DNA from: Candidatus Gottesmanbacteria bacterium
GTDB lineage: Bacteria > Patescibacteriota > Microgenomatia > UBA10105 > UBA927
NCBI GenBank assembly: GCA_963809665.1
Contig: CAWEKC010000001.1
Coordinates: 6,852-70,851 of the forward strand
Direction: 5' to 3'
DNA: 64,000 nt
The notes under the pieces are model-generated. The model searched no databases. It was not told where the DNA came from and was given only the letters and a program-made list of their open reading frames with translations. Within the stretch, counting starts at the first letter, position 1; each line of letters begins with the position of its first letter. Below, piece by piece: positions 1 to 49,548 of this stretch. Both the position numbers and the translations under genes were made by a program.

Positions 1-407
1 AGGTACGGAACAAATGCGGCAACGAGCGTCCCCACTGCGGCCGGAACGGCACCAAAAAGGGTGAGCAGCCAAAGAAACGAAGCAACGGCAATAGCAATAT
101 ACCCTAACCCCATACTCATCTGGAACGCTGTTACGGCATCCCCTGTGATAACCCTCACAAACGAACCTATGTAGTTAGGGAGCGGGTAATGGAAGTTAAA
201 AATTGGAATCCCGTATCCGCTGTTCATATCCGGCGCCCACCTGGGTACTATATAACCGGCGCCCAACATCCGTGCAAACTCCACGATGCGGATGATGTGG
301 TACTCCCCGTCGTGTGTCGGTATATAATTCCTGCCGAATAGCGGCCACACCGCAAACAGAACTCCCGAAGCGGCAAGGATGACCGAAATAATCAATCCTT
401 TTTTCAT
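1..407 (-). CDS. Polytopic membrane protein, PF10131-like ('PTPS-related' membrane domain) family; only the N-terminal ~135 aa, the 3' end runs off the window
   Basis: Minus-strand ATG at 405-407 gives MKKGLIISVILAASGVLFAVWPLFGRNYIPTHDGEYHIIRIVEF..GAGYIVPRW. The HDG..H / PRW N-terminal motif is shared with paralogs at 2858-4493, 34886-36550 and 36547-38073. ATGA overlap with the stop of the upstream gene at 404-406. Absent from the ORF track because there is no stop inside the window. Confidence 0.6.
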   Translation of the reverse strand, partial: MKKGLIISVILAASGVLFAVWPLFGRNYIPTHDGEYHIIRIVEFARMLGAGYIVPRWAPDMNSGYGIPIFNFHYPLPNYIGSFVRVITGDAVTAFQMSMGLGYIAIAVASFLWLLTLFGAVPAAVGTLVAAFVPY

Positions 408-1547
408 ATGTTTCTCTTGGCATAATACCGGAATCCTTCATAAACTGCATATAAAACAACCGGGATGACGGTCAGTGCAAACCTGAGTGCGGGACCGGGT
501 CCTTCGTAATAGCCCATCCACATATAGGGAAGGGCGCGCAGTTCAAGCGCAAATGACAACACGACTGTGAATCCGAAAATAAACCGGTGATTTTTAAGCT
601 GCATTAAGGATGCCGGTGCAATGAGCCACACCGCATACCATGGATAGAGTTCTTCCCGTATCGGAGCAACGATGAAAAATACCGCGGCCAAAAAAATATA
701 GGTATAGAGAAGCACACGATCAAAAGAAACACTTCGGAAAAACAACAATGGTGCGAGTGCAACCGTTGCCCCCTTCACGAGCCACGAAGCCGCAAGGAAA
801 CCAATACCGTAAATTTTTTGCATGAAACGTTTCTGATACCACAGGAATAACCCGAGAAGTGCAAAAGCCATCATATATATATCGTTATGCCCGTTCATGA
901 GTATTTCAATAAGCACCAAGGGATTGAGGGCAAAAAAGATAACGTTTGTCAGACTTTTTGTGATACGCCATATAAAATAGCTAAAACCCAGATACACAAC
1001 GGCATTTAACAGTTTGAACGCAATTACCGTGGCCCAGATGTTTCCCCTTCCCGCATAATGCGGTATCGCTGTAATAAGAATCCATATCGGTCCGTATAGT
1101 GCCGTTTTATTTGCCGCCCGCGTAAATGCCAGGTTCGGGTCATTGGGTATTTCAATGGGCATGACGATATACGGGTTTTCGCGGTACTGATAGGTCACGT
1201 TCGCAGTCGCAATGTAGTTAAAAAGATCATATGTAAGTGCCGGGGTAAGAACAGGCTAAAATAACGGCCGACGCCACTAATACCATACATAACTTTTTCC
1301 ATGACTCAAAAACTCTTACGCCGTGCTTGAGAAAGACGCAGAAACAGGCAAATAATCCGATGAGTATGGCGAAAAACAATACGGCCGCGATCGGTCTCTG
1401 ATGATACGCGAGGTTTTTCAGCGGCTCCTGAAATTTGAGAAATACGGGATGTGTCGATAGGATCAGATTCGGATCAATAAATCCATACGAAAACACTCCA
1501 AGAATTAACAGTATTATTAAAAAAAATGGTACTACTATGGACGCCAT
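404..1547 (-). pseudogene. DUF2029/GT87-type polytopic GT-C-like membrane protein, paralog of 39589-40725, interrupted by a 1-nt frameshift near 1225-1240
   Basis: ORF 1227-1547 (..YHQRPIAAVLFFAILIG..) aligns with the N-terminus of the 39589-40725 protein (..YFQRPVATGMFVGLVAAFF..). ORF 404-1198 (..YDLFNYIATANVTYQYRENPYIVMPIEIP..) aligns with its remainder (YDIFNYMFDAKTVLVYHKIPYMVIPLQF). The two pieces are in different frames and together total 370 aa versus 378 aa for the paralog. Confidence 0.6.
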
Positions 1548-1549
1548 GA

Positions 1550-2089
1550 TTATTGGGATGCCGTCTCACTGGCAATATGTTGCCGCTGTTCAACGGATGC
1601 TCGAATCATCCCGGCTAAGGGCAATTCCGTAGGTTTGGATTTCTCCGGTGTCCATGTAAACTGATCGGGAGTTGCAGTAAGAAGTCCCGTTAATACCTCC
1701 GTGTGTTTTTCAGCGGCAGAGGTAATCAATTGCTGTACTACATTCACATTCACGCCTTCTTTTTTCGCTCCGGAAACATACGAAGGCAATTGCATAAACT
1801 CTTTATCAGAACGGGCGAGAGCGTCTGTTCCGAGAAGATATTGTTTATATTCCATGAGTGTTTTTGCCTCAATAAGATATTTATCTGATAAGGCGAGGTG
1901 ATATTTTACCTGTGCGATATTACCCCAAGACCAGTAAAATTTAAGCCGGTCCATGATACGGCTTACCCTGTATAGGGTGTTTCCCGGCATATAGGACGGG
2001 TACGGCATAACATAGTCCGCGCGTACTGAAGACGCTATACATAGCGTGCAAAAAATTAATACAATTATAAATGCTAATTTCTTTTTCAT
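1550..2089 (-). CDS. Hypothetical secreted protein, signal peptide MKKKLAFIIVLIFCTLCIASSVRA, no recognisable domain
   Basis: ORF 1550-2137, with start preferred at the internal MKKK at 2087-2089 (hydrophobic h-region plus AxA-like site). Sits inside the co-directional glycosylation operon. Confidence 0.45.
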   Translation of the reverse strand: MKKKLAFIIVLIFCTLCIASSVRADYVMPYPSYMPGNTLYRVSRIMDRLKFYWSWGNIAQVKYHLALSDKYLIEAKTLMEYKQYLLGTDALARSDKEFMQLPSYVSGAKKEGVNVNVVQQLITSAAEKHTEVLTGLLTATPDQFTWTPEKSKPTELPLAGMIRASVEQRQHIASETASQ

Positions 2090-2857
2090 AACTTTCGAAA
2101 CTTCCGATACATGATCGGAAAATGCAGAGCGGACCAATAGGCAAATACGAGCCCATACCAGCCGTCGATAAACCCTTTATGCCGGACAAACAATGAAAGG
2201 AATGTTATCTTTGGTTTGATAATATTGTAGAGAATCCACGTCCATGCATTTTTAGAAATCCCGCTTTTTTTCATCTCCGAAGCTGCGAGGGTGGTGTATG
2301 AATCAGCCTTCCTCCAATAATCGTCACGTGTCCGATAGGAAATATGATCCATGGGCTCCGTAAGATACCCGGTTTTACCTGAAACCTCTATCTGCTCATG
2401 TACGCTCTTGGCGGGAAAATGAGCCTTACCGCGCCGTATAAGTCTCATAACGTAATCCGGATATTGCCCGCCTTTGCGCATCCAGTGCCCCCAAAAATAA
2501 TTCCTGCGCGGGATAAAGTACCCGTTGATATCGGAAGTACCGGATTTCATAACCGTTTGTATTTCATTGCTTAATGCCTGAGTGACCCTCTCGTCCGCAT
2601 CGAGTTGCAGAATCCAACGTCCCCGAACACGCCTCCAGTGCTTTCTGCTTATTTATGTGAAACATTACGGGGTTATCCGTCTCAATAATATGAGATGTAA
2701 ACTTGCGGGCAATTGAAACGGTCGCATCTGAGGATCCGCCGTCAACCACAACTATTTCATCCGCCAGCCGGCGGACTGAGGCAAGACATTTTTCAAGATT
2801 TTTCTCCTCATTAAATACCGCAATTGCCACTGAAAGTTTTATGTCCTTTTTCGCCAT
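2086..2857 (-). pseudogene. GT2-family glycosyltransferase (paralog of 30206-30955 and 31839-32741) with a 1-nt indel in a C4/G4 run at 2621-2624
   Basis: N-terminal part MAKKDIKLSVAIAVFNEEKNLEKCLASVRRLADEIVVVDGGSSDAT starts at ATG 2855-2857, inside ORF 2564-3085. C-terminal part is ORF 2086-2550. The conserved ..SGRWILQLDADERV.. motif is restored only if one G of the minus-strand GGGG run at 2621-2624 is removed (compare TGKWILYIDADEEV in the 30206-30955 protein). Confidence 0.65.
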
Positions 2858-4493
2858 AGTAACCCTCGTTAAAACCGACACTCCGATTATAGCAAGAGCA
2901 GCGAGTGAAATCCTCTCTGCGGCAGTTCGCAACTTCGTGTTTTCAAAGACGACCCGTACTGAATGAGTTCCCGGTGCCACCTGAAATGTCATCAGGCCCC
3001 GGTAATTAGGGTTCTGGTATTGAATTTCAGTCACTGCGCCGTCAATATATATACCTCCAGTCGGGAAAATATACGGTGTTTTCAAGAAGCAGTGTCGGGT
3101 TGGAAACGTTCACGGTATATTCATGTACTGTCGATGACCGGAAGCCGTTTGTGATCGTTGCGTTCGCCGTGCTATAACCATAAGCGGGCTGGCGGGAGTA
3201 TGTTCCATAAAACGTACCGACCAGATAGGACTGCTTTCTCCTGTATCCGTGGTACTGAAATATATACCTGTATAAAAAGATTCGTTATGTACTACATACG
3301 CTTTCGGGTGCCACATAGGTATAGTAACCAGAATAATCAACATGCATAGTACGGCCATTACATACGGCCTTTTTATCCTGGTTTTCAGAAGCTCGCGGGC
3401 CGCGACACCTCCCGCAACCGCGGCTGCAAAAACTGATACCGAAAGGAAACGCCAGGGAAACTGAAAATTCTGTAATGTTGAAACGGCAACCCAGATGGGT
3501 TTGGACCAGGACGTCATGATAAAAAATGAAATGAGTAAAATTCCCAATATAGTGAAAAGAAAATACCGTACGTTCGGAAACTTTGTTTTCCATATCACAG
3601 TAATTGCACCGATAACACCGGCCCATTGCATGAATCCAAGTGATTTGGTAAGCGTTTCTCCCTGCCCGTAATTCCACGGGGAATACAAAAACCATGTCCA
3701 GGGGACAAACCTGGCTGCCGCTTCTCCGGACGTAACAATATCCCGGAGTGTGTATTTTCCTTCAAAATACGCCGGTATCCAAAAAAATGCGGAAAGAGCA
3801 AACCCCGCGAGTACCGCCACAAGCGCTCATGGATCCGAAAAGCCATTTTTCCTTCGTTTCAAACAATAACAAATAGAGTAAATAGACCAGGATAATCGGC
3901 ATAAACATAATGGCAATCGCGTTGTGGGCAAGGATAAGGAGGGCAATGGATACGGCAACGCCAATGGTGTTTGTAACTACATGTTTACGCAGTGCCGGCT
4001 GGGAGAGCTTAAACAGGAAATACATGATGAGAGGCGGAAAGATAAACGCAACATGTTCACCAATAGCTCCCCGAACGTATAAATCTACAAAACGGTATGG
4101 CGCAAAAACATACAAAAGTGCCCCGACGATTCCGGCCTTTTTCCCAAACGCTGCCCTCATCCATATAAACATGGTAAGAGCGCTGGCAATGAATGCAAAG
4201 CCGAATACAATTTTGGTGCTATCAACCAATGAAAAACCGATAGTGTGAAATAGAGAAGCTATATACGAGGGAAGCGGATATAAAAACATTAATATAGGAT
4301 GCCCATATCCCCAGTTGAGAGAGCCCGCCCATCGCGGAATGATATTACCTTCTTTAAGCGATTGGTAAAAGTTTGCAATCCTTGCCACATGATCCTGTCC
4401 GTCATGAGTCACGGGAAAACCCGGATGGACTAAGGCAATAAGCGGCAAAAACGAAACAATGCAAAGCAAAAGAAACGGTAACGCCTTTTTCAT
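2858..4493 (-). pseudogene. PF10131-like polytopic membrane protein (paralog of 34886-36550 and 36547-38073) with a frameshift near 3805-3815, an in-frame TGA at 3110-3112 and no stop codon before the downstream GT2 ATG
   Basis: Three pieces match successive regions of the 36547-38073 protein. ORF 3762-4547 is the N-terminal part (..THDGQDHVARIANFYQSLKEGNIIPRW..). ORF 3110-3820 is the middle part (FFWIPAYFEGKY / QFPWRFLSV). The first 76 codons of ORF 2564-3085 are the C-terminal part (KTPYIFPTGGIYIDGAVTEIQYQNPNYRGLMTFQVAPGTH). The middle and C-terminal pieces share a frame and are separated only by TGA at 3110-3112. Confidence 0.6.
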
Positions 4494-4495
4494 TT

Positions 4496-6055
4496 TCAAA
4501 ATATCCTCTTTTCCAGAATAAGACCATTCAACATCGTTTTTATCCATATGCTACTTCCTCCCTGCACCACGGTCTCAAGCCACCCGTTTTGACGCCACGG
4601 CTGGCTCGTATCCGGCTCAATAATAAGGTATGCTAAACCCTTTTTTTCGTGGGCAGGCACATATCCGTAGCGGGTGTTCCCATATGTCTGGAACAAGTAA
4701 TCATACGAATAGGTATAGACACCCGGAACGAATTCAAATACCGAAAACGGCTGACCGTGCGCATCCTGATATATGGTATCGATGACAAGGCGTTTCCCTA
4801 TAATTTTGTCATAAACCCCCAAGTCACGTATGTCTACCGTATAGGAAACATATTGACGGAATACCGACCCGCAGGCCACCATAACCAGAAATACAATTCC
4901 CACCAGTAAACCTATTTTTGCAACCAGCAATTTGTTTACGCGCCAAAGCGCAACACCGGCAAAAGTGAACAGGAGAATATACGCGATACGCGTATGGGTC
5001 AGATAATAGTCCCATACGATATTGTTGAGAAGTAAATACGCCCCACAGGTCAAAACGATCATGAGAAGCAAAAACAACACGAAACGTTTCTCATTTTTAC
5101 CCCGTACCAGAAACAATCCCAACCCGACGAACGGAATCGTTATGTACAACATAATCATCTGCGTATGCCACGGAATCCATCCGAATTCAAATGTGAACGT
5201 GTTGTAAAAATTATTCCAGTAATCGAATGCATGAGAGGCAAGCCGTTTGGCTTCAAACATAGAACCGTTTGTAGCGGTTCCTGAAGAAAGATACGAAATG
5301 GCGGATCTAACGTCCGTAAAACCGTGGCGCATATCAAAAAGAATCATCGGTAGAAATGCAAATCCCAGTGCTATAAGTGTGTACATGTATACTTTCCAAT
5401 CACGGATTCTAAAAATCAGAGGAAGTGAAACGATGACGGATGCCGTGAGCGGGATGGATACCCCAAGCTGGGAATTATAGGAAAATCCGGCAATAAATAC
5501 CGCCAAAGGAGCAAATAGTTTCGGGTTGTCCGGTATGCGGTACACAAAATACAGGGCTAGAATGACAAAAACCGTGATAGGGTGACTGCTCCAGATAAAC
5601 CTCGATTGCGAAACTATGAGCGGCGATACTGCGGTGAAGAAAAGGAACAGGACAGATCCTAACCTCCCCAACATTTTATAGCCGACCCATGCAGACATGA
5701 CGAGCGCAGCAACGCCGAACAGAAACATAAAAATCTCTCCGCCTATCGGATTACCGCGGAATAATAGGTAGGCCAAAGAAATGAGATAAAAATATCCGGG
5801 CCCATGAAATATTCCGTTGATACCGGCGACTCCCGAACCGGCCTCCGCTCCGATGAGCGTTAATTTATGATGGACGATGATGTTGTAAGCCGCCAGATAA
5901 TCTCTCCCCTGATCCAGTCCGAATAAAAAATTGCCGTTAATCAGTTCAACAGCCCGGAGGGCTATCCCCCAAATCAGAATACCGATGATAACAGCACAAA
6001 AAAATATATTCCTCCTTGATGCCGGTAATGAAATCGTGCGTTGTATTTTTTTCAT
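4496..6055 (-). CDS. ArnT/PMT-like GT-C membrane glycosyltransferase (COG1807-type)
   Basis: 519-aa polytopic protein. N-terminal loop ..GLDQGRDYLAAYNIIVHHKLTLIGAEAGSGVAGINGIFHGPGYFYL.. is paralogous to 41473-43008 (GDEGRDVLVVMHMIVNHKFTLLGPTASVGGFFLGPIYYYF) and to 23414-24706. Confidence 0.65.
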   Translation of the reverse strand: MKKIQRTISLPASRRNIFFCAVIIGILIWGIALRAVELINGNFLFGLDQGRDYLAAYNIIVHHKLTLIGAEAGSGVAGINGIFHGPGYFYLISLAYLLFRGNPIGGEIFMFLFGVAALVMSAWVGYKMLGRLGSVLFLFFTAVSPLIVSQSRFIWSSHPITVFVILALYFVYRIPDNPKLFAPLAVFIAGFSYNSQLGVSIPLTASVIVSLPLIFRIRDWKVYMYTLIALGFAFLPMILFDMRHGFTDVRSAISYLSSGTATNGSMFEAKRLASHAFDYWNNFYNTFTFEFGWIPWHTQMIMLYITIPFVGLGLFLVRGKNEKRFVLFLLLMIVLTCGAYLLLNNIVWDYYLTHTRIAYILLFTFAGVALWRVNKLLVAKIGLLVGIVFLVMVACGSVFRQYVSYTVDIRDLGVYDKIIGKRLVIDTIYQDAHGQPFSVFEFVPGVYTYSYDYLFQTYGNTRYGYVPAHEKKGLAYLIIEPDTSQPWRQNGWLETVVQGGSSIWIKTMLNGLILEKRIF

Positions 6056-7701
6056 GGACTACTCGCAGAATCAGATATTTCTATTGCGGGTGTCCCGTCT
6101 AAAAATTTAATGCTCATCACGTTCCCGATGGGCATATCCTTTGGATCCCCGACGTACAACATGGTTCCGTTGCGGTGCTCCTTCGCCCAGTCGATTCTCC
6201 TGAATTCATATTTGTCAAAATTGTTATTTGCCTCAGTACCTCCTGATTGAGTCCCGCCGGCGGCAAGATACTTAACCGGATCGTATTTCGTATAAAAAAG
6301 GAAAAACATATATGATTGATCCAATGTCGTTGAGACTACCACTTTTTGGTATTTTGATTTTATTTTTTCAGTAAACGCAACCGCATCTTTATATCCATAC
6401 TGCCAATATTCTGAAACCTCGGGGTTTTGCTGGACAAAGTACATATCCAGATAATACGCAAAATTAAATAACCCAAACAGGATAACGCCTGCGGCCGCCG
6501 CGTACCGCAGAAAAATTTTTCGCCCTGACAGATACTCCCGCCACACACGTATTGCATCCGCAATACCAACGGCAATAAATACCTGAAACACGGGCAGGAA
6601 TACAAGAGTTCGTACAGCATGCGGAAGACCTGTGGTCGGAGACGCGGCTATAGGTGATATGAGGAACCACCCTACAAGGACTGTAGACACCGGACCTTTC
6701 CTGTATTTAACCACCCGATATATTCCGTATAACAGGAACGGCAATTCCCATAGATACAGAAGCCCCATATCCGGAGCATGATGCCGCGGGTTGTCTCCGG
6801 TTAAAAACAGCCATTTGAACGAGAAGTGCGAAAGATATCCTGCGACAACGGTTTTCGCATATACTATCCGACGGTTATCCAAAAGTTGTCCGATATGGTC
6901 CCCTGCATGTAGATCCTGTTCGAGTTTTGCAATATTACGTGCCAGTAACTCAGTCTGATCCGTAAATGAACTTGTGCCGCGCAGTCGCAGAAGCGCGCTT
7001 TGATTAAATACAACCGGTATAAGAGGCGCTGCAACAAGAACAGCGAGAACCATACTTAAAATAATAGATTTCGTGTGTCCTTTTACAAAAAGTTCCTGTC
7101 TGAATACCACGGCAAGAATAATAACCAGAAGCGGCAGGAAAACCCGTTCACTATGATATGCATACAGACCCAAAGCAAATAAAACCGCAGCAATTGGCAG
7201 ATACATACGCCGTTTGAGACCCGCAAGAAATGCTGCCACCGCCCATATATTAATGGTAACTCCCGTGTTCGCCTCAAATGCGATACGCGAAAATTGTATA
7301 GACCAGGGAGAAATTGCAAGTAAAAACGATGAAATCAAGGGGATGGTATCGTTTTTGCGATCGCGTAAAAGTTCCCGGACAAGAAAATAGACACCAAGCA
7401 CTGCAAGCACTCCCATAACAGCCGACGGAAGCCGTGTAGACCACACGGACAACCCAAACAATGCAACCGAAGGGACGGTTAAATATACATACAGCGGTGG
7501 TTTATAATCATCGAACGACCGTATCGACAATGGGAGGAATGTTCCGTATTCATCTCTGCCGGTTTTTAATATCGAATATGCGTTATACCCGAGAGCCGCT
7601 TCGTCCCAATCGGGACTGGGAGGCACGCTTCCCAGCTGGTAGAACCGAAGTCCTACGGCAATGGCCAATATAACAAATAAGGATACAAGGGTTTTTTTCA
7701 T
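6052..7701 (-). CDS. PMT_2/GT39-like GT-C membrane glycosyltransferase (dolichyl/undecaprenyl-phosphate-sugar dependent type)
   Basis: 549 aa with N-terminal ..DWDEAALGYNAYSILKTGRDEYGTFLPL..RLPSAVMGVLAV.. motif. First of three tandem paralogs. Confidence 0.7.
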   Translation of the reverse strand: MKKTLVSLFVILAIAVGLRFYQLGSVPPSPDWDEAALGYNAYSILKTGRDEYGTFLPLSIRSFDDYKPPLYVYLTVPSVALFGLSVWSTRLPSAVMGVLAVLGVYFLVRELLRDRKNDTIPLISSFLLAISPWSIQFSRIAFEANTGVTINIWAVAAFLAGLKRRMYLPIAAVLFALGLYAYHSERVFLPLLVIILAVVFRQELFVKGHTKSIILSMVLAVLVAAPLIPVVFNQSALLRLRGTSSFTDQTELLARNIAKLEQDLHAGDHIGQLLDNRRIVYAKTVVAGYLSHFSFKWLFLTGDNPRHHAPDMGLLYLWELPFLLYGIYRVVKYRKGPVSTVLVGWFLISPIAASPTTGLPHAVRTLVFLPVFQVFIAVGIADAIRVWREYLSGRKIFLRYAAAAGVILFGLFNFAYYLDMYFVQQNPEVSEYWQYGYKDAVAFTEKIKSKYQKVVVSTTLDQSYMFFLFYTKYDPVKYLAAGGTQSGGTEANNNFDKYEFRRIDWAKEHRNGTMLYVGDPKDMPIGNVMSIKFLDGTPAIEISDSASSP

Positions 7702-9320: not shown

Positions 9321-9327
9321 GAGTATC

Positions 9328-10986: not shown

Positions 10987-11021
10987 AAGACTGTCATGTA
11001 TGATAACCCTACCATTATAGC
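10987..11021. promoter_or_regulatory. Divergent promoter region between 9328-10986 (-) and 11022-13424 (+)
   Basis: A 35-bp gap with TATGAT at 10999-11004 (plus) and TATAAT on the minus strand at about 11012-11017. Confidence 0.3.
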
Positions 11022-17549: not shown

Positions 17550-17611
17550 ATCGTAACGGACATTTGTATTGTACTATAATGTTACTGGCGAGAAAACTTA
17601 TTGAACGTAAT
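17550..17611. promoter_or_regulatory. Divergent promoter region between PMT_2 genes 15855-17549 (-) and 17612-19333 (+)
   Basis: AT-rich 62-bp gap containing ttgtattgtacTATAATgtt (-10-like hexamer 17575-17580, about 30 nt upstream of ATG 17612) and, on the other strand, TATAGT. Confidence 0.35.
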
Positions 17612-23394: not shown

Positions 23395-23413
23395 ATATGT
23401 TAGTATAACGTAT

Positions 23414-40725: not shown

Positions 40726-41470
40726 ATAATCCCTGCCATGCGTTTATCCGGATTTTAAGAATATCCATAAGCCCCTGTACGGAATCAATAACGGGATTCA
40801 CGCGGCGGGTCTCGACATAATGCCATTCCACCGGCACTTCTTTTATCTTATACCCGAGCTTTCTGGCCAAAAACAAAACCTCAATATCAAATCCCGCCGT
40901 CACCATGGATCCGCTCACCGTATGCCGTGATCCATACAATTTAAGACGCTGAAAAATATCATGGGCTACAGACGAACGGAACGCCTTAAAACCGCACTGC
41001 GTATCCACGATACCGTGAAGTCCCAAAATGCTGCCCCGCAGCACCATAAATCCCCGTGCCATAATCCGCCGTGTAAGCGGGGCGCCCTGTCTACGGCCGC
41101 TGCGCGACCCGATCACCACATCATACCCTTTCTCAAACCACGGAAGGATATTTTTTATCTCAGTAATCGGAGTAGCCTGATCAAGATCGGTAAACAATAC
41201 GATCGCACCCCGGCTCCCGAGCATGCCGGTAATGACCGTGGATGCTTTTCCCTGATGCGGATTGTGTATGACGGAAAACCCCGGGTTCGCTTTTACAAAG
41301 GCATCCAGTAACACGCCGGTCCCGTCAGTCGAACCGTCATCCACAATAATTGCTTCCCATGTATACGTCGCCCGCTCCAGGAATCGCGATACTTTATCAA
41401 GAGCCCCCAAGCGGATATTGGTTTCTTCATTATACGCAGGAATGATCACGGATAAATCAACTTTATTCAT
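40718..41470 (-). CDS. DPM1/CsbB/GtrB-like GT2 polyprenyl-phosphate sugar synthase
   Basis: 250 aa with ..LSVIIPAYNEETNI..VDDGSTDGT..DLDQATP..QCGFKAF.. Confidence 0.7.
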   Translation of the reverse strand: MNKVDLSVIIPAYNEETNIRLGALDKVSRFLERATYTWEAIIVDDGSTDGTGVLLDAFVKANPGFSVIHNPHQGKASTVITGMLGSRGAIVLFTDLDQATPITEIKNILPWFEKGYDVVIGSRSGRRQGAPLTRRIMARGFMVLRGSILGLHGIVDTQCGFKAFRSSVAHDIFQRLKLYGSRHTVSGSMVTAGFDIEVLFLARKLGYKIKEVPVEWHYVETRRVNPVIDSVQGLMDILKIRINAWQGLYG

Positions 41471-43015: not shown

Positions 43016-44155
43016 TCAGCCCGAGGCTGATCCGCCTTTGGCGGACTTCCATATTACTTTTGAATAGATAACGTAATTCCAGATAAGAAGAAATCCCGTG
43101 CCCAAAAGGAAAAATTCAAAGTACCACCGGTCGCCTAGGAGTCGGACTCCCAGCCAAATACATCCGGTTTGTATGACAACGACGCCGAATGCACTCGTTG
43201 CGTAAAACTGCGCCAGCTTACCGACATATTGTCCGATACCTTCTATTTTATGATGCCGGAACGTCCACATATTATTCAAATTAAAGTTAGAAAATATGGC
43301 AACGGCCGCCCCGGCGAGATTTGCCCATGTCGCCGACCAATTCAGGTTGTGTAGTACCACTAAAATAACTGCATTAATAATAAATCCTATACCCCCCACG
43401 ACAAGAAACTTACCGAACGGACCGGTAACTATCTCCCGGAATTTTGTTACGGCGATAAATTGGAAAATATTCAAAATATACTCAGCGGGGGCGATCTTAG
43501 AATGTCCGAACCGCCTGTCGGTAAATTGTATCGGGACTTCGGTAATCTTCGCCCCGTCATGGATGGCACTGTGAAGAAACGCGATCTGAAACACGTATCC
43601 GCCGTACCCTTTCACCTTTTCTTTGTTATCCAGATAATACTTTTTTGAATAAGCACGGTACCCTCCGGTCCAATCGTGAACCCCTGTGTGCCAAAGTCCG
43701 AACCGTACGATACTATTGCCTATGACACTGTATATTTTCCGTATTAATCCCCAATTACCCGGTATTGAACCGCCACGGATATATCTGCTGCCGACGACAA
43801 AATCAGCCCCGTTGTCTATTGCATGCAAAAACTCCGGCGCGGTATCCGGATCATGGGACAAATCAGCATCCATCTGCAATAAAATTTCCGCATGTAACTG
43901 ATTAATTGCATACGTCATGCCCCGCAGGAGCGCTTTCCCTAAGCCCTCTTTTTTACCCGAAATAAGGTGCACGTTCCCGTGTGTTTGTTGGTATTTTTTT
44001 ACTAAGTCTCCCGTCCCGTCGGGTGATGTATCATCCACGACCAGGTAGGAAATTGTGTGCCGGTTGACCGCTTTCATTACCGTTTCAAGGCGGTCAAGAA
44101 GCACAATAATATTTTCTCGTTCGTTATACGTGGGAATAATAACGACAACCTTCAT
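43016..44155 (-). CDS. DPM1-like GT2 polyprenyl-phosphate sugar synthase fused to a C-terminal GtrA-like four-helix membrane domain
   Basis: 379 aa. N-terminal ..VVIIPTYNEREN..VDDTSPDGT..QMDADLSHDP..GGYRAY.. C-terminal ~120 aa with four hydrophobic helices (..FLVVGGIGFIINAVILVVL..YFATSAFGVVVIQTGCIWLGV..), the GtrA/GtcA flippase-type module. Confidence 0.65.
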   Translation of the reverse strand: MKVVVIIPTYNERENIIVLLDRLETVMKAVNRHTISYLVVDDTSPDGTGDLVKKYQQTHGNVHLISGKKEGLGKALLRGMTYAINQLHAEILLQMDADLSHDPDTAPEFLHAIDNGADFVVGSRYIRGGSIPGNWGLIRKIYSVIGNSIVRFGLWHTGVHDWTGGYRAYSKKYYLDNKEKVKGYGGYVFQIAFLHSAIHDGAKITEVPIQFTDRRFGHSKIAPAEYILNIFQFIAVTKFREIVTGPFGKFLVVGGIGFIINAVILVVLHNLNWSATWANLAGAAVAIFSNFNLNNMWTFRHHKIEGIGQYVGKLAQFYATSAFGVVVIQTGCIWLGVRLLGDRWYFEFFLLGTGFLLIWNYVIYSKVIWKSAKGGSASG

Positions 44156-44164: not shown

Positions 44165-45125
44165 TCAAACCCGTTCGCGCCAATAGTTGAGAAGGTCCTC
44201 CATCGTTTTTTTGAATGGGATTTCCGGCTTCCAGCCGGTTTTTGCCACAAACTTGCTGTTATCACCTAAGAGCACTGGTACATCTGAAGGACGCATGCGG
44301 GCTTGATCCGGCTCAATCTTTCACTTTAGTTTTCGAAAATGACAGGAGAATATTCAGCATATCACCGATTTTTATCGTCGTGCCGCTGCAAATATTGTAT
44401 ACATCGCCGGGATCACATTTTTCCACTGCAACCAAATACCCTTTTACCATGTCCCGGACGTCCGTATAATCGCGGCTGGCATCCAAATTTCCCACATGTA
44501 TGACCGGATCCTGTTTCCCTTTTTCGATCAGGGCGATTTGCTTGGCAAAATTTGATTCGGCAAACGTATCGCCACGTCTCGGCCCCGTGTGGTTAAACCC
44601 GCGGGTCCGGATGATACGGATCTTATATGACTGAAAATACTGGTATCCCAAATAATCCATTGCAAGCTTTGATACCGCATAGGGTGAAAGCGGACGCAAA
44701 GGATTTGTCTCCTTGATAGGCAATTCATCGGGATGGACCAGCCCATATTCCTCACTGGAGCAGGCTATCTGGATAACCGGATCGATGCCGACCTGACGGA
44801 CTGCTTCAAAAAGGTTAGCTGATCCCACGATATTCGCCTCAAGCGTAACGGACGGCGATACCCATGAGGTCGGAACAAATGACTGCGCGGCAAGATGAAA
44901 AATATAATCCGGTTTAATGCGTGAAATTGTCGAATACAGGCTATGGGTATCCAGAATATCCGCGTCCTCCAGATGAAGCTTGTTGACAATGGAATCGATA
45001 TAATCTGTCTTACTGCGCGACCGTTTGAGTCCGTATACTTCGTATCCGCCGCCGAGAAGCAAATCCGCTAAATGGCTTCCGACAAACCCCGCAATACCCG
45101 TAATAAATACTTTTTTTGCTTCCAT
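44165..45125 (-). pseudogene. Gmd/Rmd-like NAD-dependent GDP-deoxyhexose dehydratase/reductase with a 1-nt insertion near 44316-44325
   Basis: ORF 44313-45125 has ..GIAGFVGSHL..YGLKRSRS..NHTGPRRGDTF..GNLDASRDYTDVRD.. After its premature stop, the +1 frame reads ..KIEPDQARMRPSDVPVLLGDNSKFVAKTGWKPEIPFKKTMEDLLNYWRERV*. This matches the Rmd C-terminus (..DPARMRR..TGWKPEITIKQSL..DWESRV). Confidence 0.65.
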
Positions 45126-45143: not shown

Positions 45144-46442
45144 TCACATTCTCCCCACGCCGTAATACATGAAACCGAGCGACTTTACTTTTGCCGGTTC
45201 ATAAATATTGCGGCCGTCAAACAATACGAGCGTCTTCATACTGCGGGCCAGTCTCACCAGGTCTACTTGCTGAAATTCATTCCATTCGGTGATAACCGCA
45301 ACTGCATCTGCCCCGTGGGCTGCGGTATATGCATCCCTCGCAAACGTAACGGATGCGGGCAACAACTTTTTCGCATTGCCGATTGCCTCGGGATCATATG
45401 CAACCACTGTTGCTCCATGACGTACGAGTTGATTGATAATGAATATGGACGGCGCTTCCCTCATATCATCCGTATTGGGCTTAAAAGCAAGCCCGAGTAC
45501 TGCAATATGTTTACCACGGAGATTATTTTTAAAATGATGAACTATTTTCTCAACAAAACTCTCGGCGGTTTTTCTGTTTATCTCATCAACTGCTTTAAGG
45601 AGTGAAAAATCATACCCATATTGCTTTGCGATCGCAATAAGCGCCTTTACATCTTTCGGAAAACAGCTTCCTCCGTATCCCACCCCGGCAAACAGAAAAC
45701 TCCTCCCTAAACGTTTATCCAAGCCCACCGCCTCCAGCACATATTCTGCGTCTGCTCCCACCTTTTCCGAAAGCATGGCAATGGCATTGGCAAAAGAAAT
45801 CTTAGTGGACAGAAGTGAATTAGACGCGTATTTAATTAATTCCGCAGTTTCCAGGTTACACAGGACGGTTTTACCGCTTATGGGTTTATGGAGTTCAAGC
45901 AGTAATTCCCGTGCCCTGTCTGATGTTGTCCCGACAACGAGACGGTCAGGGTGCAAGGTATCATCGATAGCGGATCCTTCGCGTAAGAATTCAGGAACGG
46001 ACGCTATTGCAAATGACGATCCCTGCGGTTTATATGCTGTGAGAATCTCGCCGACTTTTTTGTTCGTACCCGGAGGAACGGTGCTTTTGGTCACGACTAC
46101 TTTGTATCCTACGAGTGACTTGGCGACGCTTTCGGCGGCAGTGAAGACGCTCGACAGATCCGCCTCACCGGTAGCTTTAGGCGGAGTCCCTACACAAATA
46201 AAGATGATTTCGGCAGGGACGACTGCTTCTTTGTAATCCAATGTAAATTTCAGCCGTCCGGCATCAACGTTCCGTTTCACCAGTTCCGCAAGCCCCGGCT
46301 CAAAAAATGGCGTGATACCCTTTTTTAAATTTTCGATTTTTTCACGCGTCCGGCCGACTACCCACACAGTGTTCCCGAGATCTGCAAACACCGACGCAGT
46401 AACCAGTCCCACATATCCATGTCCGATAAATGCAATAGTCAT
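45144..46442 (-). CDS. ugd: UDP-glucose 6-dehydrogenase (nucleotide-sugar dehydrogenase family)
   Basis: 432 aa. N-terminal Rossmann IAFIGHGYVGL and catalytic ..GVGYGGSCFPKDV.. Confidence 0.8.
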   Translation of the reverse strand: MTIAFIGHGYVGLVTASVFADLGNTVWVVGRTREKIENLKKGITPFFEPGLAELVKRNVDAGRLKFTLDYKEAVVPAEIIFICVGTPPKATGEADLSSVFTAAESVAKSLVGYKVVVTKSTVPPGTNKKVGEILTAYKPQGSSFAIASVPEFLREGSAIDDTLHPDRLVVGTTSDRARELLLELHKPISGKTVLCNLETAELIKYASNSLLSTKISFANAIAMLSEKVGADAEYVLEAVGLDKRLGRSFLFAGVGYGGSCFPKDVKALIAIAKQYGYDFSLLKAVDEINRKTAESFVEKIVHHFKNNLRGKHIAVLGLAFKPNTDDMREAPSIFIINQLVRHGATVVAYDPEAIGNAKKLLPASVTFARDAYTAAHGADAVAVITEWNEFQQVDLVRLARSMKTLVLFDGRNIYEPAKVKSLGFMYYGVGRM

Positions 46443-46448: not shown

Positions 46449-47303
46449 TTATTGTACCACAAATTCCTGCTTTTTAACCTCCGCTATTCCTTCCCTGAAC
46501 GAATGCATCACAACACCCAATGCTTTAATCTTATCATTCCTCAGCGCGGCGTACTGCGGGGCTGGCGCGCGGTTTGCAAACATTTCGGCAAACGTCGACT
46601 TCTCAACTAATCCCGTGTTGTACTCGAATATTTCTGCAATGATAGAAGCGGCTTCATAGGGGGTGAGGGGGCTGCCGACCACATGATACATACCGCTGGC
46701 TCCTACTTTCACCAAAACGCGGAGTGCCGCTGCTATGTCGTCAATGAATGTCGGCGCAAATATCTGATCGGTGGGCGCGCTAACTATCTCACCGGCCTGC
46801 ATCCGTTCAATCATTTTATGAACAAAATCCTTTTTACCGACCGGATGGGCACGGTATGGATTCGAGATTCGGATAACTAATCCTCCTATCGCAAGTACCC
46901 GCTTTGCTCCTTCTGTCTTCGTTTTGGCATACCATCCTAAAGGATTAGGTGTATCTTCTTCCGTATACGATTTATTCTTCCCATCAAACGCATAATCGGT
47001 ATCAATATACAAAAGTCGTTTATTAAGTTTTTTACAGATATCAGCAATATGCTGGGTCGCTTCGACGTTTACTTTCCAGGCTATATCTTTCTCGGTTCTT
47101 TCTGCTCCCTGGACATCCGTGTACGCCGCCATATGAAATACCCATGGAGCGTCGGTCTTTTCAAGACGCGCCGTCACACTTTTGACGTCAGTAATATCAA
47201 CGCCGGTGTCCGGACTTAAATTCTCAAAGGTGAATTCGGGGGCCAGCATCTGCGTCACACGGGAACCAACCAATCCCGATAATCCGGTTCCCAGAATATT
47301 CAT
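46449..47303 (-). CDS. rmlD: dTDP-4-dehydrorhamnose reductase
   Basis: ORF 46449-47366, with start at the internal ATG at 47301-47303 (MNILGTGLSGLVGSRV) giving an ATGA overlap with rmlB. Conserved ..YIDTDYAFDG..PLGWYAKTK.. Confidence 0.7.
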   Translation of the reverse strand: MNILGTGLSGLVGSRVTQMLAPEFTFENLSPDTGVDITDVKSVTARLEKTDAPWVFHMAAYTDVQGAERTEKDIAWKVNVEATQHIADICKKLNKRLLYIDTDYAFDGKNKSYTEEDTPNPLGWYAKTKTEGAKRVLAIGGLVIRISNPYRAHPVGKKDFVHKMIERMQAGEIVSAPTDQIFAPTFIDDIAAALRVLVKVGASGMYHVVGSPLTPYEAASIIAEIFEYNTGLVEKSTFAEMFANRAPAPQYAALRNDKIKALGVVMHSFREGIAEVKKQEFVVQ

Positions 47304-48316
47304 GAGGATACTCCGTACTGTTTTTTGTAATATTCCTGATATGCTCCGCTTTTCACCCGCTTCCACCAGGATTCATGTGTTTTGTACCATTCGATTGTTT
47401 TTCCAAGCCATTCTTCAAACTCATGGAGGGGTTTCCACCCTAACCCGTTATTAATTTTAGACCAGTCGATGGCGTAGCGACGATCATGCCCGGGACGGTC
47501 TTTAACAAACTCAATAGAGGACTCATCCTTTCCCATTATGTGCAGAATGAGACGTACGACCTCAAGATTACTGATATCTTTCGTCGATCCACCGACGCAA
47601 TATGTTTCTCCTACTTTCCCCGTCAGGAGTACCGCTTCGATTGCGCGGCAATGGTCTTCAACATAGAGCCAATCCCGTACGTTTTTGCCGTCGCCGTAGA
47701 TTGGTACTTTTTTCCCTTCGAGGATGTTAGTAATCGCCAAAGGGATGAACTTTTCCGGAAAATGAAAGGGGCCGAAATTATTTGAACAATTTGTTATGGT
47801 GATCGGCAGACCGAATGTATGATAGTAGGCGCGTACTAAATGATCCGATCCGGCTTTACTGGCGGAGTAGGGACTTCTGGGGTCATATGGTGTTCGTTCA
47901 CTAAATTTACCCGGATCTTCAAGTGCCAGTGATCCGAATACTTCGTCCGTTGATACATGATGAAACCGTTTCACTTTCACCGTATGGGCCGCATCCAACA
48001 ATACCTGGGTACCCGTGACATTGGTTTTTACAAACGGGGCCGGGTCACGTATGGAGCGGTCCACATGGCTTTCGGCAGCGAAATGGACAACCGTGTCAAC
48101 GCCTTCCATGGCCGCATTCACGGTTGCGGGGTCACAGATGTCACCGTAAACGAATTTGTAACGGGGATTTTTCTCGACGTCCACTAAATTTTCAAGATTT
48201 CCCGCATAGGTAAGTTTATCGAGATTGATGATTGAATCGTCCGGATGATTTGCCATCCAGAAAATAATAAAGTTGGACCCGATAAAACCTGCTCCTCCAG
48301 TGACTAGCAATTTCAT
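47300..48316 (-). CDS. rmlB: dTDP-glucose 4,6-dehydratase
   Basis: 338 aa with MKLLVTGGAGFIGSNF..HVSTDEVFG..YSASKAGSDHLVRAY.. Confidence 0.85.
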   Translation of the reverse strand: MKLLVTGGAGFIGSNFIIFWMANHPDDSIINLDKLTYAGNLENLVDVEKNPRYKFVYGDICDPATVNAAMEGVDTVVHFAAESHVDRSIRDPAPFVKTNVTGTQVLLDAAHTVKVKRFHHVSTDEVFGSLALEDPGKFSERTPYDPRSPYSASKAGSDHLVRAYYHTFGLPITITNCSNNFGPFHFPEKFIPLAITNILEGKKVPIYGDGKNVRDWLYVEDHCRAIEAVLLTGKVGETYCVGGSTKDISNLEVVRLILHIMGKDESSIEFVKDRPGHDRRYAIDWSKINNGLGWKPLHEFEEWLGKTIEWYKTHESWWKRVKSGAYQEYYKKQYGVSS

Positions 48317-48340
48317 AAAAATATTAAAATTAACTTTTGT

Positions 48341-48814
48341 TTACGTTATTTTTTTATTCGTGATTGGTTTACCCTGCACCCAGTCATATCCGATATCGGG
48401 ATCGTTATACTCAACGCGCCCTTCTTCTGCTGTGTCATAAATTCGGCTGGTTGCATAGACAAAATGACACGGGCCTTCCAATACTTTCATGCCGTGCGCA
48501 ACACCCGACGGTACTTTTACGATGATATTGTCCGGCTCATTTCCCAGAATAAACTCATTCAGTTGCCTATGGGTCGGTGAATCTTTCCGGAGATCATACA
48601 GAACCATTTTGATTTTCCCTGTTGCACAAAACCACCAGTCAGTCTGCGTTTTGTGTACATGCCATGCCTTGACTACTCCCTCTGCCATAAACGTATGCGA
48701 CAATTGTCCGAATCCTTCAGAAAAAAACTCATCAGTCGAGCGGATAAGCTCTTCAAAATAGCCCCGTTCATCGGGATGGCGGACCAGTTTTTTTATCATT
48801 ACTCCGGCAATCAT
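48341..48814 (-). CDS. rmlC: dTDP-4-dehydrorhamnose 3,5-epimerase (cupin fold)
   Basis: 157 aa with ..RHPDERGYFEEL..KAWHVHKTQTDWWFCATGKIKMVLYDLR.. Confidence 0.75.
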   Translation of the reverse strand: MIAGVMIKKLVRHPDERGYFEELIRSTDEFFSEGFGQLSHTFMAEGVVKAWHVHKTQTDWWFCATGKIKMVLYDLRKDSPTHRQLNEFILGNEPDNIIVKVPSGVAHGMKVLEGPCHFVYATSRIYDTAEEGRVEYNDPDIGYDWVQGKPITNKKIT

Positions 48815-49548
48815 AATTTTCCTTCTTTAACGAACCGTGCAACTTCTGTATTGGCACGCAATAACTCATCGAACGACGTACCTGCATCGATCCACCAGTC
48901 AATAATGCCGCACATGAGTTTGCCGTCTTTAAGATAGAGGTTATTCAGATCCGTTACTTCAAGTTCACCGCGCCCCGATGGTTTTAATTTCCGTATATAG
49001 TCAAATACCTTTCCGTCATAGATATACACGCCGATCTGCGCGATATCCGATTTGGGATGCTCAGGCTTTTCCTCTATAGAGAGAACTGTACCGTCTTTAT
49101 CCATTTCGATGACGCCGTACTGGCTCGATGTGGTATCAAGGTGAACGCCGAATGTCATGGCGCCTTTTCCTGACACCTCAAACCGCCCGACGGATTTTTT
49201 AAGATCAAAATTGAAGATATTATCGCCTAAAATGACGAGAATCGGCCCGTGGTCCGCAAATTTTTCGGCCAGCGCGACCGCCTGGGCAATCCCGCCTTTC
49301 GGGTCTTTCTGCACGGCATAATATACATGAAGCCCGAATTCCTCACCGGCGTTCAGTAAATTGGCAAAATGACCCGCGTGGTCCGGCGCTGAGGTGAGTA
49401 GCACCTCTGTAATTCCCGCCCGTGCCATAGCCTCCAGCGGGTAATAAATCATCGGTTTGTTATAAATAGGCAAAAGATGTTTATTGGTGACTAAGGTCAG
49501 CGGACGTAAACGGGTTGCAAGTCCACCGGCCAGTATAACGCCTTTCAT
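48811..49548 (-). CDS. rmlA: Glucose-1-phosphate thymidylyltransferase (short form)
   Basis: ORF 48811-49608, with start at MKGVILAGGLATRLRPLT..NKHLLPIYNKPMIYYPL. Aligns along its length with RmlA. Confidence 0.8.
   Translation of the reverse strand: MKGVILAGGLATRLRPLTLVTNKHLLPIYNKPMIYYPLEAMARAGITEVLLTSAPDHAGHFANLLNAGEEFGLHVYYAVQKDPKGGIAQAVALAEKFADHGPILVILGDNIFNFDLKKSVGRFEVSGKGAMTFGVHLDTTSSQYGVIEMDKDGTVLSIEEKPEHPKSDIAQIGVYIYDGKVFDYIRKLKPSGRGELEVTDLNNLYLKDGKLMCGIIDWWIDAGTSFDELLRANTEVARFVKEGKL

Follow-up and report, generated by a model that had tools for sequence, protein, structure and literature searches.

A conserved locus with 21 GT-C-type glycosyltransferases and a polyprenyl-phosphate-sugar supply in a relative of Candidatus Gottesmanbacteria

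Introduction

For the mycobacterial and corynebacterial envelope, few polyprenyl-P-sugar donors (Ppm1 and decaprenyl-P-arabinose) serve many external GT-C enzymes of one linkage each (PimE, MptA/B/C, EmbA-C, AftA-D, and Pmt), whose genes are scattered in the genome. The endoplasmic reticulum (ER) machinery (Dpm1/Alg5, Rft1, ALG3/9/12/6/8/10, STT3, PMTs, and GPI mannosyltransferases) likewise uses Dol-P-sugar-type donors in two stages, cytoplasmic and then luminal, with a number of GT-C enzymes comparable to that of the locus described here. In the three-component systems of Firmicutes (CsbB/GtlA with GtcA and YfhO/GtlB; GacI/GacL and SccN/SccM on rhamnose polysaccharides), a GT2 makes C55-P-sugar and a YfhO-type GT-C transfers the sugar extracellularly (PMC5836110, PMC8035078, PMC11754754). 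Haloarchaeal N-glycosylation of the S-layer depends on clustered agl genes (AglJ, AglG/I/E, AglR/Agl15, AglB, AglD, AglS, AglM, and Agl11-14) (PMC3871713). The enzyme families concerned are already known. Here, we describe a locus in which GT-C enzymes occur in a multiplicity that is undescribed, as is the resulting surface glycan.

Results and Discussion

The window, a 64,000-nucleotide stretch of one contig, comes from a relative of Candidatus Gottesmanbacteria, a member of the CPR with a genome of ~1 Mb. Based on the open reading frame listing, Pfam, NCBIfam, and paralogy, positions 1-49548 contain exactly 21 GT-C-type polytopic glycosyltransferases (the initial annotation had counted about 21), namely, 11 PMT_2-type, 4 YfhO-type, 4 PF10131-like, and 2 GT87-like proteins. 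They take up 69% of 1-49608, a share far above chance for any genome, and the locus makes up ~5% of the host's DNA. Gene packing was tight and mostly codirectional, with many 4-bp overlaps. The coding fraction reached 98.5%, and three seeming gaps were frameshifted C-termini, which leaves no room for further genes. The region is essentially all coding up to rmlA and follows one glycosylation theme, as first noted, except for a single-TM DUF5667 protein (1550-2137; Pfam) without an obvious role in glycosylation, found at the same position in the relative L005 with 87% identity. The initial observation was confirmed, with the correction that the island runs on past position 1 and out of the window.

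The GT-C genes are designated A to T, and one N-terminal fragment precedes them; all lettered genes and all non-GT-C genes lie on the minus strand unless marked (+). Six PMT_2-type genes form paralogue group G1: D, E, and F (6052-11142; Pfam above cut-off, xDE after TM1), I (15855-17549; Pfam and paralogy), K (19339-20936; Pfam, two frameshifts), and the divergent J (17564-19333, +), with a weak Pfam score, BLAST similarity to E, K, and F, and an orthologue of 72% identity in L005. Three form group G4: C (4496-6055), which lacks its own Pfam match and was placed by BLAST to T and M, and M (23276-24706, +) and T (41473-43008), both assigned by Pfam and paralogy. The Pfam-assigned singletons are L (20941-22482; PMT/PMT_2, WDE motif) and R (38070-39587; TDE motif), the latter a core member. 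The YfhO-type members are G (11022-13424, +; Pfam, 85.7 bits), H (13400-15858; C-terminus frameshifted near 13640, orthologues of ~830 amino acids with PF09586), N (24713-26941; Pfam and paralogy), and O (27963-30209; Pfam), whose C-terminus is PgfM1-like in NCBIfam. Group G3 comprises the PF10131-like P and Q, side by side at 34886-38073, and B (2879-4547), which has 2-3 frameshifts and an intact orthologue of 542-560 amino acids; the fourth PF10131-like member is the fragment at 1-407, off the left edge, with a weak PTPS_related match (E, 2.7e-4) and the motif THDGEYH after TM1. The GT87/DUF2029-like members are S (39589-40725), a core member similar to MptA and PimE (GT87 score of 26.3 bits, with the cut-off at 25; MptA, E of 3.4e-6; orthologue matching PF26314), and A (404-1547), with 30% identity to S, one frameshift near 1240, and its N-terminal piece in another frame.

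Only ~13 of the 21 GT-Cs passed the Pfam gathering score; the others were tied in by paralogy, profile-profile comparison, and, for the PF10131-like group, a structure model. In hhalign, G4 matched G1 with a probability of 97.8% and aligned acidic motifs, and G3 was related to the YfhO type. An acidic motif after TM1 was present in every one of the 21 proteins. Structure models of two families, G3 and YfhO-type, matched GT-C enzymes only: the G model (AF2, pLDDT 89) retrieved AftD, PglB, ArnT, and STT3 in Foldseek, and the Q model retrieved ALG12, ALG9, ALG3, ALG6, Pmt4, and STT3B. These results support the original assignment of the polytopic proteins as GT-C enzymes rather than transporters. 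All equivalog-level NCBIfam scores were far below the cut-off. Identity among the paralogues is only 21-45%, so they are old.

The soluble and accessory parts were also found as first annotated (open reading frame listing, Pfam, and NCBIfam). Pathways are encoded for dTDP-L-rhamnose (rmlD, rmlB, rmlC, and rmlA, 46449-49548, with rmlA at 48811-49548; Pfam), UDP-glucuronate (ugd, UDP-glucose 6-dehydrogenase family, 45144-46442; Pfam), and a GDP-6-deoxyhexose (an Rmd-like GDP-4-keto-6-deoxyhexose reductase, 44168-45125, frameshifted near 44330; orthologue against 2PK3, E of 6.5e-85). Five cytoplasmic GT2s lie at 2089-2857 (frameshift-split; Pfam, and tblastn with the intact 256-amino-acid orthologue), at 22486-23478 (Pfam, NCBIfam), and, as a triplet with a rhamnosyltransferase-like middle gene, at 30206-32741. 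The triplet adjoins a Wzx/MOP-family flippase (32738-34195; Polysacc_synt_3, E of 9e-53; NCBIfam MOP flippase) in distant loci too, and the GT4 gene (26941-27966; Glycos_transf_1 in Pfam) closes the core module there as well. With the GT4, the cytoplasmic GT-A/GT-B transferases number six.

Three further GT2s resemble DPMS, ArnC, and GtrB. The DPMS-type polyprenyl-phosphate hexose synthase (43016-44155; DxD motif, DAD) is homologous to 5MLZ, ArnC, and GtrB and matches 5MLZ over its full length (E, 2.8e-35). It had been described as a GT2 fused to GtrA; a four-helix GtrA/DPMS_TM domain is indeed present, but Pyrococcus DPMS (5MLZ) has the same usual layout, so that this is no special fusion. 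The other two, ppGT2a (40718-41470; DPMS/PpgS-like, always adjoining the GT87-like gene) and ppGT2b (34171-34914; DPMS/ArnC/PgfS-like, DAD/DVD motifs), have 250 amino acids each and no TM segments. The latter is a candidate polyprenyl-P-sugar synthase or initiator, although both could be ordinary elongating GT2s. Donor enzymes of the CsbB/ArnC/Dpm1 kind are present, in agreement with the proposal that lipid-P-sugars are made inside and used by GT-Cs outside. The idea that a three-component logic is multiplied about 20-fold was not supported: three synthases serve 21 GT-Cs and the island has no stand-alone GtrA flippase, which means few donors and many transferases rather than 20 three-component systems. 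Weak NCBIfam matches included AglJ, a haloarchaeal Dol-P-hexose transferase, and Agl23. Within the island, Pfam detected no phosphoglycosyl transferase, Wzy/ligase (Wzy_C), or LCP ligase, and neither a WWDxG signature nor a PF02516 match indicated an STT3-type oligosaccharyltransferase. How the pathway begins and ends is thus conjectural, and the enzymes for these steps may be encoded outside the island.

Nearly every gene of the locus was syntenic 1:1 with loci of relatives (L001, L002, L003, and L005). Loci from three relatives covered 19 GT-C genes, 17 of which had 1:1 orthologues in the same order. Their identity was 57-85%, compared with 80% for Sua5 and 73% for TsaE, so by this measure their conservation is similar to that of the flanking housekeeping genes. 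F and L had no orthologue in L005. Copy number changed only in the G1 PMT_2 group, with 1-8 copies in other loci, and some diversification therefore exists. A core module in the order GT2, GT87-like, PMT_2-like, YfhO, two PF10131-like, GT2, Wzx, three GT2s, and GT4 was found again in dozens of distant metagenome contigs, where it was flanked by housekeeping genes such as that for Lon. Among the related loci, each one that reached 15 kb or more held 4-12 GT-Cs per ~20 kb. The density first called unusual is so against model organisms but normal for this CPR lineage. The age of the paralogues and the kept order and conservation of their orthologues do not support the view of the array as fast-evolving or combinatorial.

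The locus is better seen as a few lipid-sugar donors that serve many fixed transferases, which is also how haloarchaeal Agl, the ER pathway, and the mycobacterial synthesis of lipoarabinomannan and arabinogalactan are organized; assembly would then proceed in stages. It shares GT87 (PimE/Mpt)-like members and a rhamnose pathway with the mycobacterial network, and structural matches of its models include AftA, AftD, AftB, PimE, and EmbA. In contrast, it is contiguous over at least 50 kb in a ~1-Mb CPR genome, its families are mostly PMT_2, YfhO, and PF10131-like rather than Emb/Aft, and no arabinose-donor pathway was seen in the island. With the ER machinery, the resemblance is at the fold level only, without orthology. 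The haloarchaeal clusters share DPMS-like initiator/donor synthases, GT2 elongators, a MOP flippase, GT-Cs, Ugd, and rhamnose genes; here, however, similarity is at the family level only, the AglB/STT3 signature is missing, GT-Cs are ten times more numerous, and the host is bacterial. The Firmicutes systems, which are associated with rhamnose-polymer loci, share the GT2 and YfhO-type GT-C logic; the island differs from them in having no stand-alone GtrA/GtcA flippase and a 3:21 rather than 1:1 ratio of synthases to GT-Cs; the YfhO-type proteins share the family only, without equivalog-level similarity. ArnC-like GT2s and ArnT-like PMT_2 fold matches recall lipid A modification, but ArnA/ArnB/ArnD genes are absent here, and the host, as a monoderm-like CPR bacterium, is not known to have lipid A.

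We consider it about an even chance (roughly 0.5) that this is a conserved assembly line, inherited vertically, which makes one or several defined glycoconjugates of the cell surface, rather than a system of hypervariable decoration. The GT2 and GT4 enzymes beside Wzx would build a lipid-linked oligosaccharide with rhamnose and uronic acid among its sugars on the cytoplasmic face. Synthesis may start on polyprenyl monophosphate through the adjacent DPMS-like GT2, in the style of haloarchaeal AglJ, which would account for the missing phosphoglycosyl transferase, and Wzx would then flip the oligosaccharide. In parallel, the three synthases would provide three different polyprenyl-P-monosaccharides. 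Outside, each of the 21 GT-Cs would form one particular linkage or else transfer or polymerize the glycan, drawing on few donors like mycobacterial PimE/Mpt/Emb/Aft or the ER ALG enzymes. In the neighbor pairs DPMS-T, ppGT2a-S, and ppGT2b-P/Q, the GT-C is probably the enzyme that uses the respective donor first. As the product, we favor a heteropolysaccharide or lipoglycan anchored in the membrane or wall, with S-layer or pilus proteins as the main alternative acceptor.

That alternative, a machine mainly for glycosylating S-layer, pilin, or other secreted proteins, is possible but clearly less probable. It could work the Agl way (oligosaccharide on a lipid monophosphate, MOP flip, GT-C transfer, and finishing by Dol-P-Man-type GT-Cs) or as O-glycosylation of the PMT/Pgf type, in which the numerous GT-Cs would serve different target proteins or sites. 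In G1, L, and R, the xDE motif that follows TM1 resembles protein O-mannosyltransferases, which fits this idea together with the PMT/PMT_2 matches, the PgfM1-like end of O, and the GT2s similar to PgfS and AglJ. The closest solved homologue of the Rmd-like gene, the reductase 2PK3, stems from an S-layer glycan pathway. The parts list agrees with Agl (PMC3871713). However, the missing STT3/AglB/PglB signature, the lack of a detected MIR or other protein-binding domain, and the absence of an S-layer or pilin candidate gene within or adjoining the island speak against protein acceptors, and the likeness to GT87/MptA and AftA/AftD fits polysaccharide or lipoglycan acceptors equally well.

A model along the lines of the initial annotation, in which a many-fold CsbB/GtcA/YfhO system gives a teichoic-acid-like polymer a combinatorial or rapidly evolving decoration (e.g., for phage escape or varied host recognition), seems improbable. 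YfhO-type and CsbB/ArnC-type proteins do exist here, G1 copies vary, and several breaks coincide with short homopolymers, where phase variation is conceivable in principle. Yet the donor synthases are just three, stand-alone GtrA is absent, the paralogues are ancient, and both the syntenic GT-Cs and the core module are kept, the latter across very distant contigs. The breaks themselves, in at least six island genes of this assembly (A, a GT2, B, H, K, and the Rmd-like gene), are probably assembly indels, because the housekeeping gene ftsX is frameshifted too. If they are real, part of the GT-C array is decaying. A stronger form of this, that many GT-C copies are dead relics of old duplications and the conserved core alone works, is very unlikely despite the interrupted genes. 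Five of the six are intact in relatives (no orthologue was retrieved for A, so that its split was deduced from its paralogue S), and all copies keep the acidic motif. The breaks in ftsX and in the Rmd-like gene, conserved at 92%, are typical of long-read indel errors, and a ~1-Mb genome under streamlining would not preserve 30 kb of nonfunctional sequence with its gene order intact.

Gene content and boundaries of the island

Every ORF of at least 150 aa in the window was scanned against Pfam and NCBIfam. Between positions 1 and 49608, 98.5% of the DNA lies under ORFs, nearly all of them on the minus strand, and GT-C glycosyltransferase genes make up 69% of the island. The genes are tightly packed, with frequent 4-bp overlaps, and the G+C content is 44 to 49% across the window. 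The scans bore out the soluble and accessory genes named in the initial annotation: rmlA/C/B/D (46449-49548), ugd (45144-46442), a MOP/Wzx flippase (32738-34195; Polysacc_synt_3, E = 9e-53), a single GT4 (26941-27966), and five ordinary GT2s (approximately 2089-2857, 22486-23478, 30206-30955, 30952-31866, and 31839-32741). The gene proposed as Gmd/Rmd-like encodes an SDR, and the closest match of its intact orthologue, the GDP-6-deoxy-D-lyxo-4-hexulose reductase 2PK3 (E = 6.5e-85), is consistent with the proposal.

A single-TM protein with a DUF5667 domain (1550-2137, minus strand) also lies within the island. It is 87% identical to the protein at the equivalent position in a relative, which exceeds the value for most neighboring GT-Cs, and it may be an unrecognized accessory component.

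The island ends sharply at rmlA, and this edge is kept in relatives. The right flank (49816-63755) has housekeeping gene content typical of a small genome: a secreted CAP-domain protein, TsaB/TsaD-like fragments, Sua5, TsaE, VanZ, a Peptidase_C39_2 protein, FtsEX, a class-I release factor, ZnuABC, Fur, RuvCAB, and DsbA-like thioredoxins. Scanning the window for Rfam families and tRNAs gave no match.

About nine frameshift-type breaks occur in the 64 kb (near 1240, 2620, 3060-3165, 3820, 13640, 19760, 20145, and 44330 and at 54944-55071). The split genes are the GT-C genes A, B, H (13400-15858), and K (19339-20936, two breaks), a GT2 gene, the Rmd-like gene, and ftsX, a housekeeping gene. Relatives carry intact orthologues of all but two of these; none was retrieved for A or ftsX, and the presumed break in A was deduced from its paralogue S. 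Three seeming intergenic gaps proved to hold C-termini that had been shifted out of frame, those of H, K, and the Rmd-like gene. Short homopolymers are found at several junctions, and the breaks are probably indel errors of long-read assembly. Pseudogenization or phase variation specific to the island was judged unlikely because ftsX is also split. In the flank, two neighboring ORFs (50795-51715, minus strand) may be another split gene (TsaB): one of 102 aa has a partial TsaD/TsaB-family match, and the one immediately downstream of it, of 194 aa, has no Pfam match.

Twenty-one polytopic proteins with GT-C features

All-against-all BLAST placed most of the polytopic proteins (A to T in window order) in groups: a PMT_2 group, G1 (D, E, F, I, J, and K); a YfhO group, G2 (G, H, N, and O); a PMT_2-related group, G4 (T, M, and C); and a GT87-like group (S and A). 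The PF10131-like group, G3, holds P, Q, B, and a 135-aa N-terminal fragment running off the left edge (1-407), which returned only short fragments when used as a homologue query. L and R are PMT/PMT_2 singletons. This grouping agrees with the 21 GT-Cs counted initially, divided into four YfhO-type, four PF10131-like, two GT87-like, and eleven PMT-type proteins.

Pfam gathering scores were passed by about 13 of the 21, and H, C, J, and A were joined to the set by paralogy. For YfhO (PF09586, cutoff 28.5 bits), G (11022-13424, plus strand) scored 85.7, N 58.4, and O 69.9 bits. In the window, the frameshift at its C-terminus keeps H under the threshold; its orthologues carry PF09586. The PMT_2 cutoff (PF13231, 26.1 bits) was exceeded by D, E, F, I, K, L, M, R, and T. 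J reached only 20.3 bits and C gave no match, so both are linked through paralogy and hhalign only. None of the PF10131-like proteins of the window reached the PTPS_related (PF10131) threshold. S (39589-40725) scored 26.3 bits against GT87 (cutoff 25) and matched the MptA equivalog at E = 3.4e-6, far under its cutoff; an S orthologue matches PF26314. In profile comparisons, hhalign related G4 to G1 with a probability of 97.8% and the acidic motifs in register, and G3 to the YfhO type with a probability of 99.2%. The GT87-like group gave no significant match to G1.

Profile searches of five GT-C groups against the PDB were uninformative (ArnT only, E = 0.16), and structure prediction was therefore used to assess the fold. 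Hydropathy indicated 6 to 13 TM segments in full-length copies, and the helix maps of two AF2 models concurred. Foldseek comparison of the AF2 models supported the GT-C fold; the model of the YfhO-type protein G (pLDDT 89) matched AftD, PglB, ArnT, STT3, and AglB.

An Asp/Glu motif follows TM1 directly in all 21 proteins. This position is the hallmark site of the catalytic or metal-binding residue of GT-Cs. The motif is xDE in G1, an invariant Asp in the YfhO type (D62 in G), (H/S)D(D/G) in G3, D(E/Q) in G4, WDE in L, TDE in R, and V/I-D after TM1 in the GT87-like genes. According to the models, it would open the first extracytoplasmic loop and face outward. The proposal that these might instead be transporters was rejected, as they lack transporter Pfam families and their Foldseek matches to GLUT and similar proteins are nonsignificant. 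With the acidic motif in all 21, the initial assignment as GT-Cs stands. A narrower identity, STT3-type oligosaccharyltransferase, was rejected: the WWDxG motif of STT3/AglB/PglB is present in 0 of 21 GT-Cs, and PF02516 found no match among the island ORFs. The structural likeness to these enzymes is at the fold level only.

The models of the PF10131-like protein at 36547-38073 and of the YfhO-type protein at 11022-13424 both finish in a beta-sandwich domain followed by the last TM helix, and the two proteins have a YYPGW...DG signature in common. Together with the hhalign probability of 99.2%, this makes the two families look like a single superfamily.

Lipid-phosphate-sugar synthases and missing components

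Three GT2s resemble lipid-phosphate-sugar synthases. Their nearest NCBIfam and PDB relatives are PgfS, ArnC, AglJ, a haloarchaeal Dol-P-hexose transferase, PpgS, GtrB, and Pyrococcus DPMS, with NCBIfam scores far under the equivalog cutoffs in every case. They are 27 to 29% identical to one another, and all have DxD motifs. The largest (43016-44155, 379 aa; here DPMS) matches Pfam GT2 and GtrA_DPMS_TM and fits the DPMS-type architecture, with a GT-A domain carrying DxD (DAD at residue 96) and a C-terminal four-helix GtrA/DPMS_TM domain. Its residues 1-369 align with residues 23-372 of 5MLZ (E = 2.8e-35). Because the alignment covers the whole length, the GtrA part is a normal DPMS transmembrane domain, and a novel GT2-flippase fusion was rejected. 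The two 250-aa GT2s, ppGT2a (40718-41470) and ppGT2b (34171-34914), match only the catalytic domain and have no TM segment. The co-location of these DPMS/ArnC-like synthases suggests a polyprenyl-phosphate-linked sugar as the putative donor of the GT-Cs.

No stand-alone small GtrA-family flippase gene was found in 1-49608, where the coding density leaves no space for one; the gene for such a flippase may lie in another part of the genome. As to a Wzx/Wzy-type pathway, Wzx is present, and the island has no match for an initiating phosphoglycosyl transferase, a Wzy/ligase-type protein, a chain-length regulator, or an LCP ligase (Pfam Bac_transf, Glycos_transf_4, Wzy_C, and Wzz, 0 matches among island ORFs).

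Conservation in close relatives

A genome-collection scan with the DPMS protein as the query retrieved two Candidatus Gottesmanbacteria MAGs (CPR, Microgenomates), one of them a closed 995-kb chromosome, by which the island would occupy about 5% of the genome. Their loci are collinear with the window from 34 to 54 kb, at 55 to 92% amino acid identity. Two loci on a 1.09-Mb contig of a third relative cover approximately 1.5 to 48 kb of the window in unchanged order, and only F (9328-11142) and L (20941-22482) have no orthologue there. GT-C orthologues are 57 to 85% identical, in the range of the flanking housekeeping proteins Sua5 (80%), TsaE (73%), and VanZ (72%), whereas paralogues inside the window are just 21 to 45% identical. 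Thus, the GT-C set is old, diversified, and stably inherited rather than rapidly evolving. The suggestion of a fast-evolving or combinatorial system is not supported by these identities or by the gene order shared among relatives.

A core module shared by distant loci

For a wider survey, metagenomes were scanned with a YfhO alignment, which yielded 80 loci whose ORFs were searched with HMMs of the window groups. All loci of 15 kb or more contained 4 to 12 GT-C-like ORFs per approximately 20 kb. Many loci whose YfhO gene shares just about 35% identity with G have one ordered core in common: a DPMS-like GT2, a GT87-like gene, an R-like PMT_2 gene, YfhO, zero to two G1 genes, and two adjacent G3 genes, followed by a DPMS-like GT2, Wzx, three GT2s, and a GT4. 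A Lon protease borders several of these distant cores. The core of the window runs from 40718 to 26941, with its YfhO gene displaced; additions to it are the expanded G1 (6 copies), YfhO (4), and G4 (3) sets, DPMS, and the nucleotide-sugar genes. A contig encoding a protein named at NCBI as from "Candidatus Microgenomates bacterium" carries a comparable array, in which 22 kb hold at least nine GT-Cs. GT-C arrays are typical for this lineage.

The PF10131-like pair P and Q (34886-38073) is adjacent in every related locus examined (L020 to L083). Given this invariable adjacency, the two might form a heterodimer or catalyze obligatory consecutive steps. In the Microgenomates array L086, a SAM methyltransferase and a DUF2079 protein (9310-9972 and 18290-18889) are also present, so related arrays may methylate sugars and recruit further GT-C-like families absent from the window.

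Proposed pathway and acceptor

In the pathway that we propose, the GT2 and GT4 products whose genes always accompany Wzx would build a lipid-linked oligosaccharide in the cytoplasm, with dTDP-rhamnose, UDP-glucuronate, and a GDP-6-deoxyhexose as substrates, and Wzx would flip it. The three DPMS/ArnC-like GT2s would make three distinct polyprenyl-phosphate sugars, with which the 21 GT-Cs, each in a fixed role, would elaborate, polymerize, or transfer the glycan outside the membrane. The conserved neighbor pairs DPMS/T (T, a PMT_2 GT-C, 41473-43008), ppGT2a/S, and ppGT2b/P-Q suggest the first GT-C user of each donor. Initiation might take place on polyprenyl monophosphate, which fits the lack of a phosphoglycosyl transferase in the island and the DPMS-like GT2 adjoining Wzx and the elongating GT2s.

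In Haloferax, AglJ initiates on polyprenyl monophosphate and is followed by AglG/I/E; AglR and Agl15 are MOP-type flippases, AglB and AglS are GT-Cs, AglM is Ugd, and Agl11-14 are Rml enzymes (PMC3871713). The likeness of the island to this haloarchaeal system would be one of analogy, with family-level matches only (AglJ and Agl23). The mycobacterial LM/LAM/arabinogalactan network and the ER use few donors for many GT-Cs, and the island shares this ratio. It is unlike the Firmicutes three-component systems, whose ratio is 1:1:1 (PMC5836110, PMC8035078). The idea that CsbB/GtcA/YfhO logic is multiplied about 20-fold here is therefore not supported, as three synthases stand against 21 GT-Cs and the island has no separate GtrA flippase.

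The GT87/Mpt- and Aft-like resemblances lead us to favor as acceptor a heteropolysaccharide or lipoglycan anchored in the wall or membrane over a protein. The main alternative is glycosylation of an S-layer or pilus protein, to which the PMT-type DE motifs and the resemblance to Pmt4, AglB, and PgfM1 point. The boldest reading, to which we give a chance of roughly one in four, is that the core (GT2, GT87-like, PMT_2-like, YfhO, two PF10131-like, GT2, Wzx, three GT2s, and GT4) and its expansions encode an uncharacterized, lineage-defining envelope glycoconjugate of Microgenomates-type CPR. Its synthesis would begin on polyprenyl monophosphate, in the archaeal manner, and about 20 GT-Cs would carry out most of it outside the membrane, so that the ER/archaeal pathway of lipid-linked oligosaccharides would have a counterpart in bacteria. 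If so, the glycoconjugate may be indispensable to the cell surface through which these organisms live as episymbionts.

Novelty and potential applications

A large part of bacterial diversity belongs to the CPR/Patescibacteria, which have genomes of about 1 Mb and almost no biosynthesis. To our knowledge, the chemistry of their envelope is essentially uncharted. The yeast ER has as many GT-C enzymes as this one locus. All components come from known families, and the mechanistic class is also known. What appear to be new are the multiplicity (21 GT-Cs in a locus of at least 50 kb), the deeply conserved core module in Microgenomates-type CPR bacteria, and the predicted product. Our limited literature searches on CPR/Patescibacteria glycosylation and envelopes turned up no paper on such GT-C arrays; for one Microgenomates genome, 29 glycosyl transferases are mentioned in passing (PMC7143001).

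That one conserved locus takes up about 5% of a small genome and equals the yeast ER in GT-C number points to a complex surface glycan at the center of CPR biology, with host attachment, phage defense, and envelope integrity as candidate roles. The core is a concrete module of 12 to 13 genes that might be produced in a heterologous host. In addition, the locus is a source of many divergent, compact GT-Cs for structural and specificity studies, including a PF10131/YfhO-related family that is very large yet falls under the Pfam thresholds. The G3 family has 4615 representatives at 50% identity (E ≤ 1e-30). Some PF10131-like representatives hold 2, 3, or 5 tandem whole GT-C copies in one predicted protein (1116, 1670, and 3329 aa; P0257, P0328, and P0312), which reflects either true fusion of several GT-Cs or run-through in gene calling.
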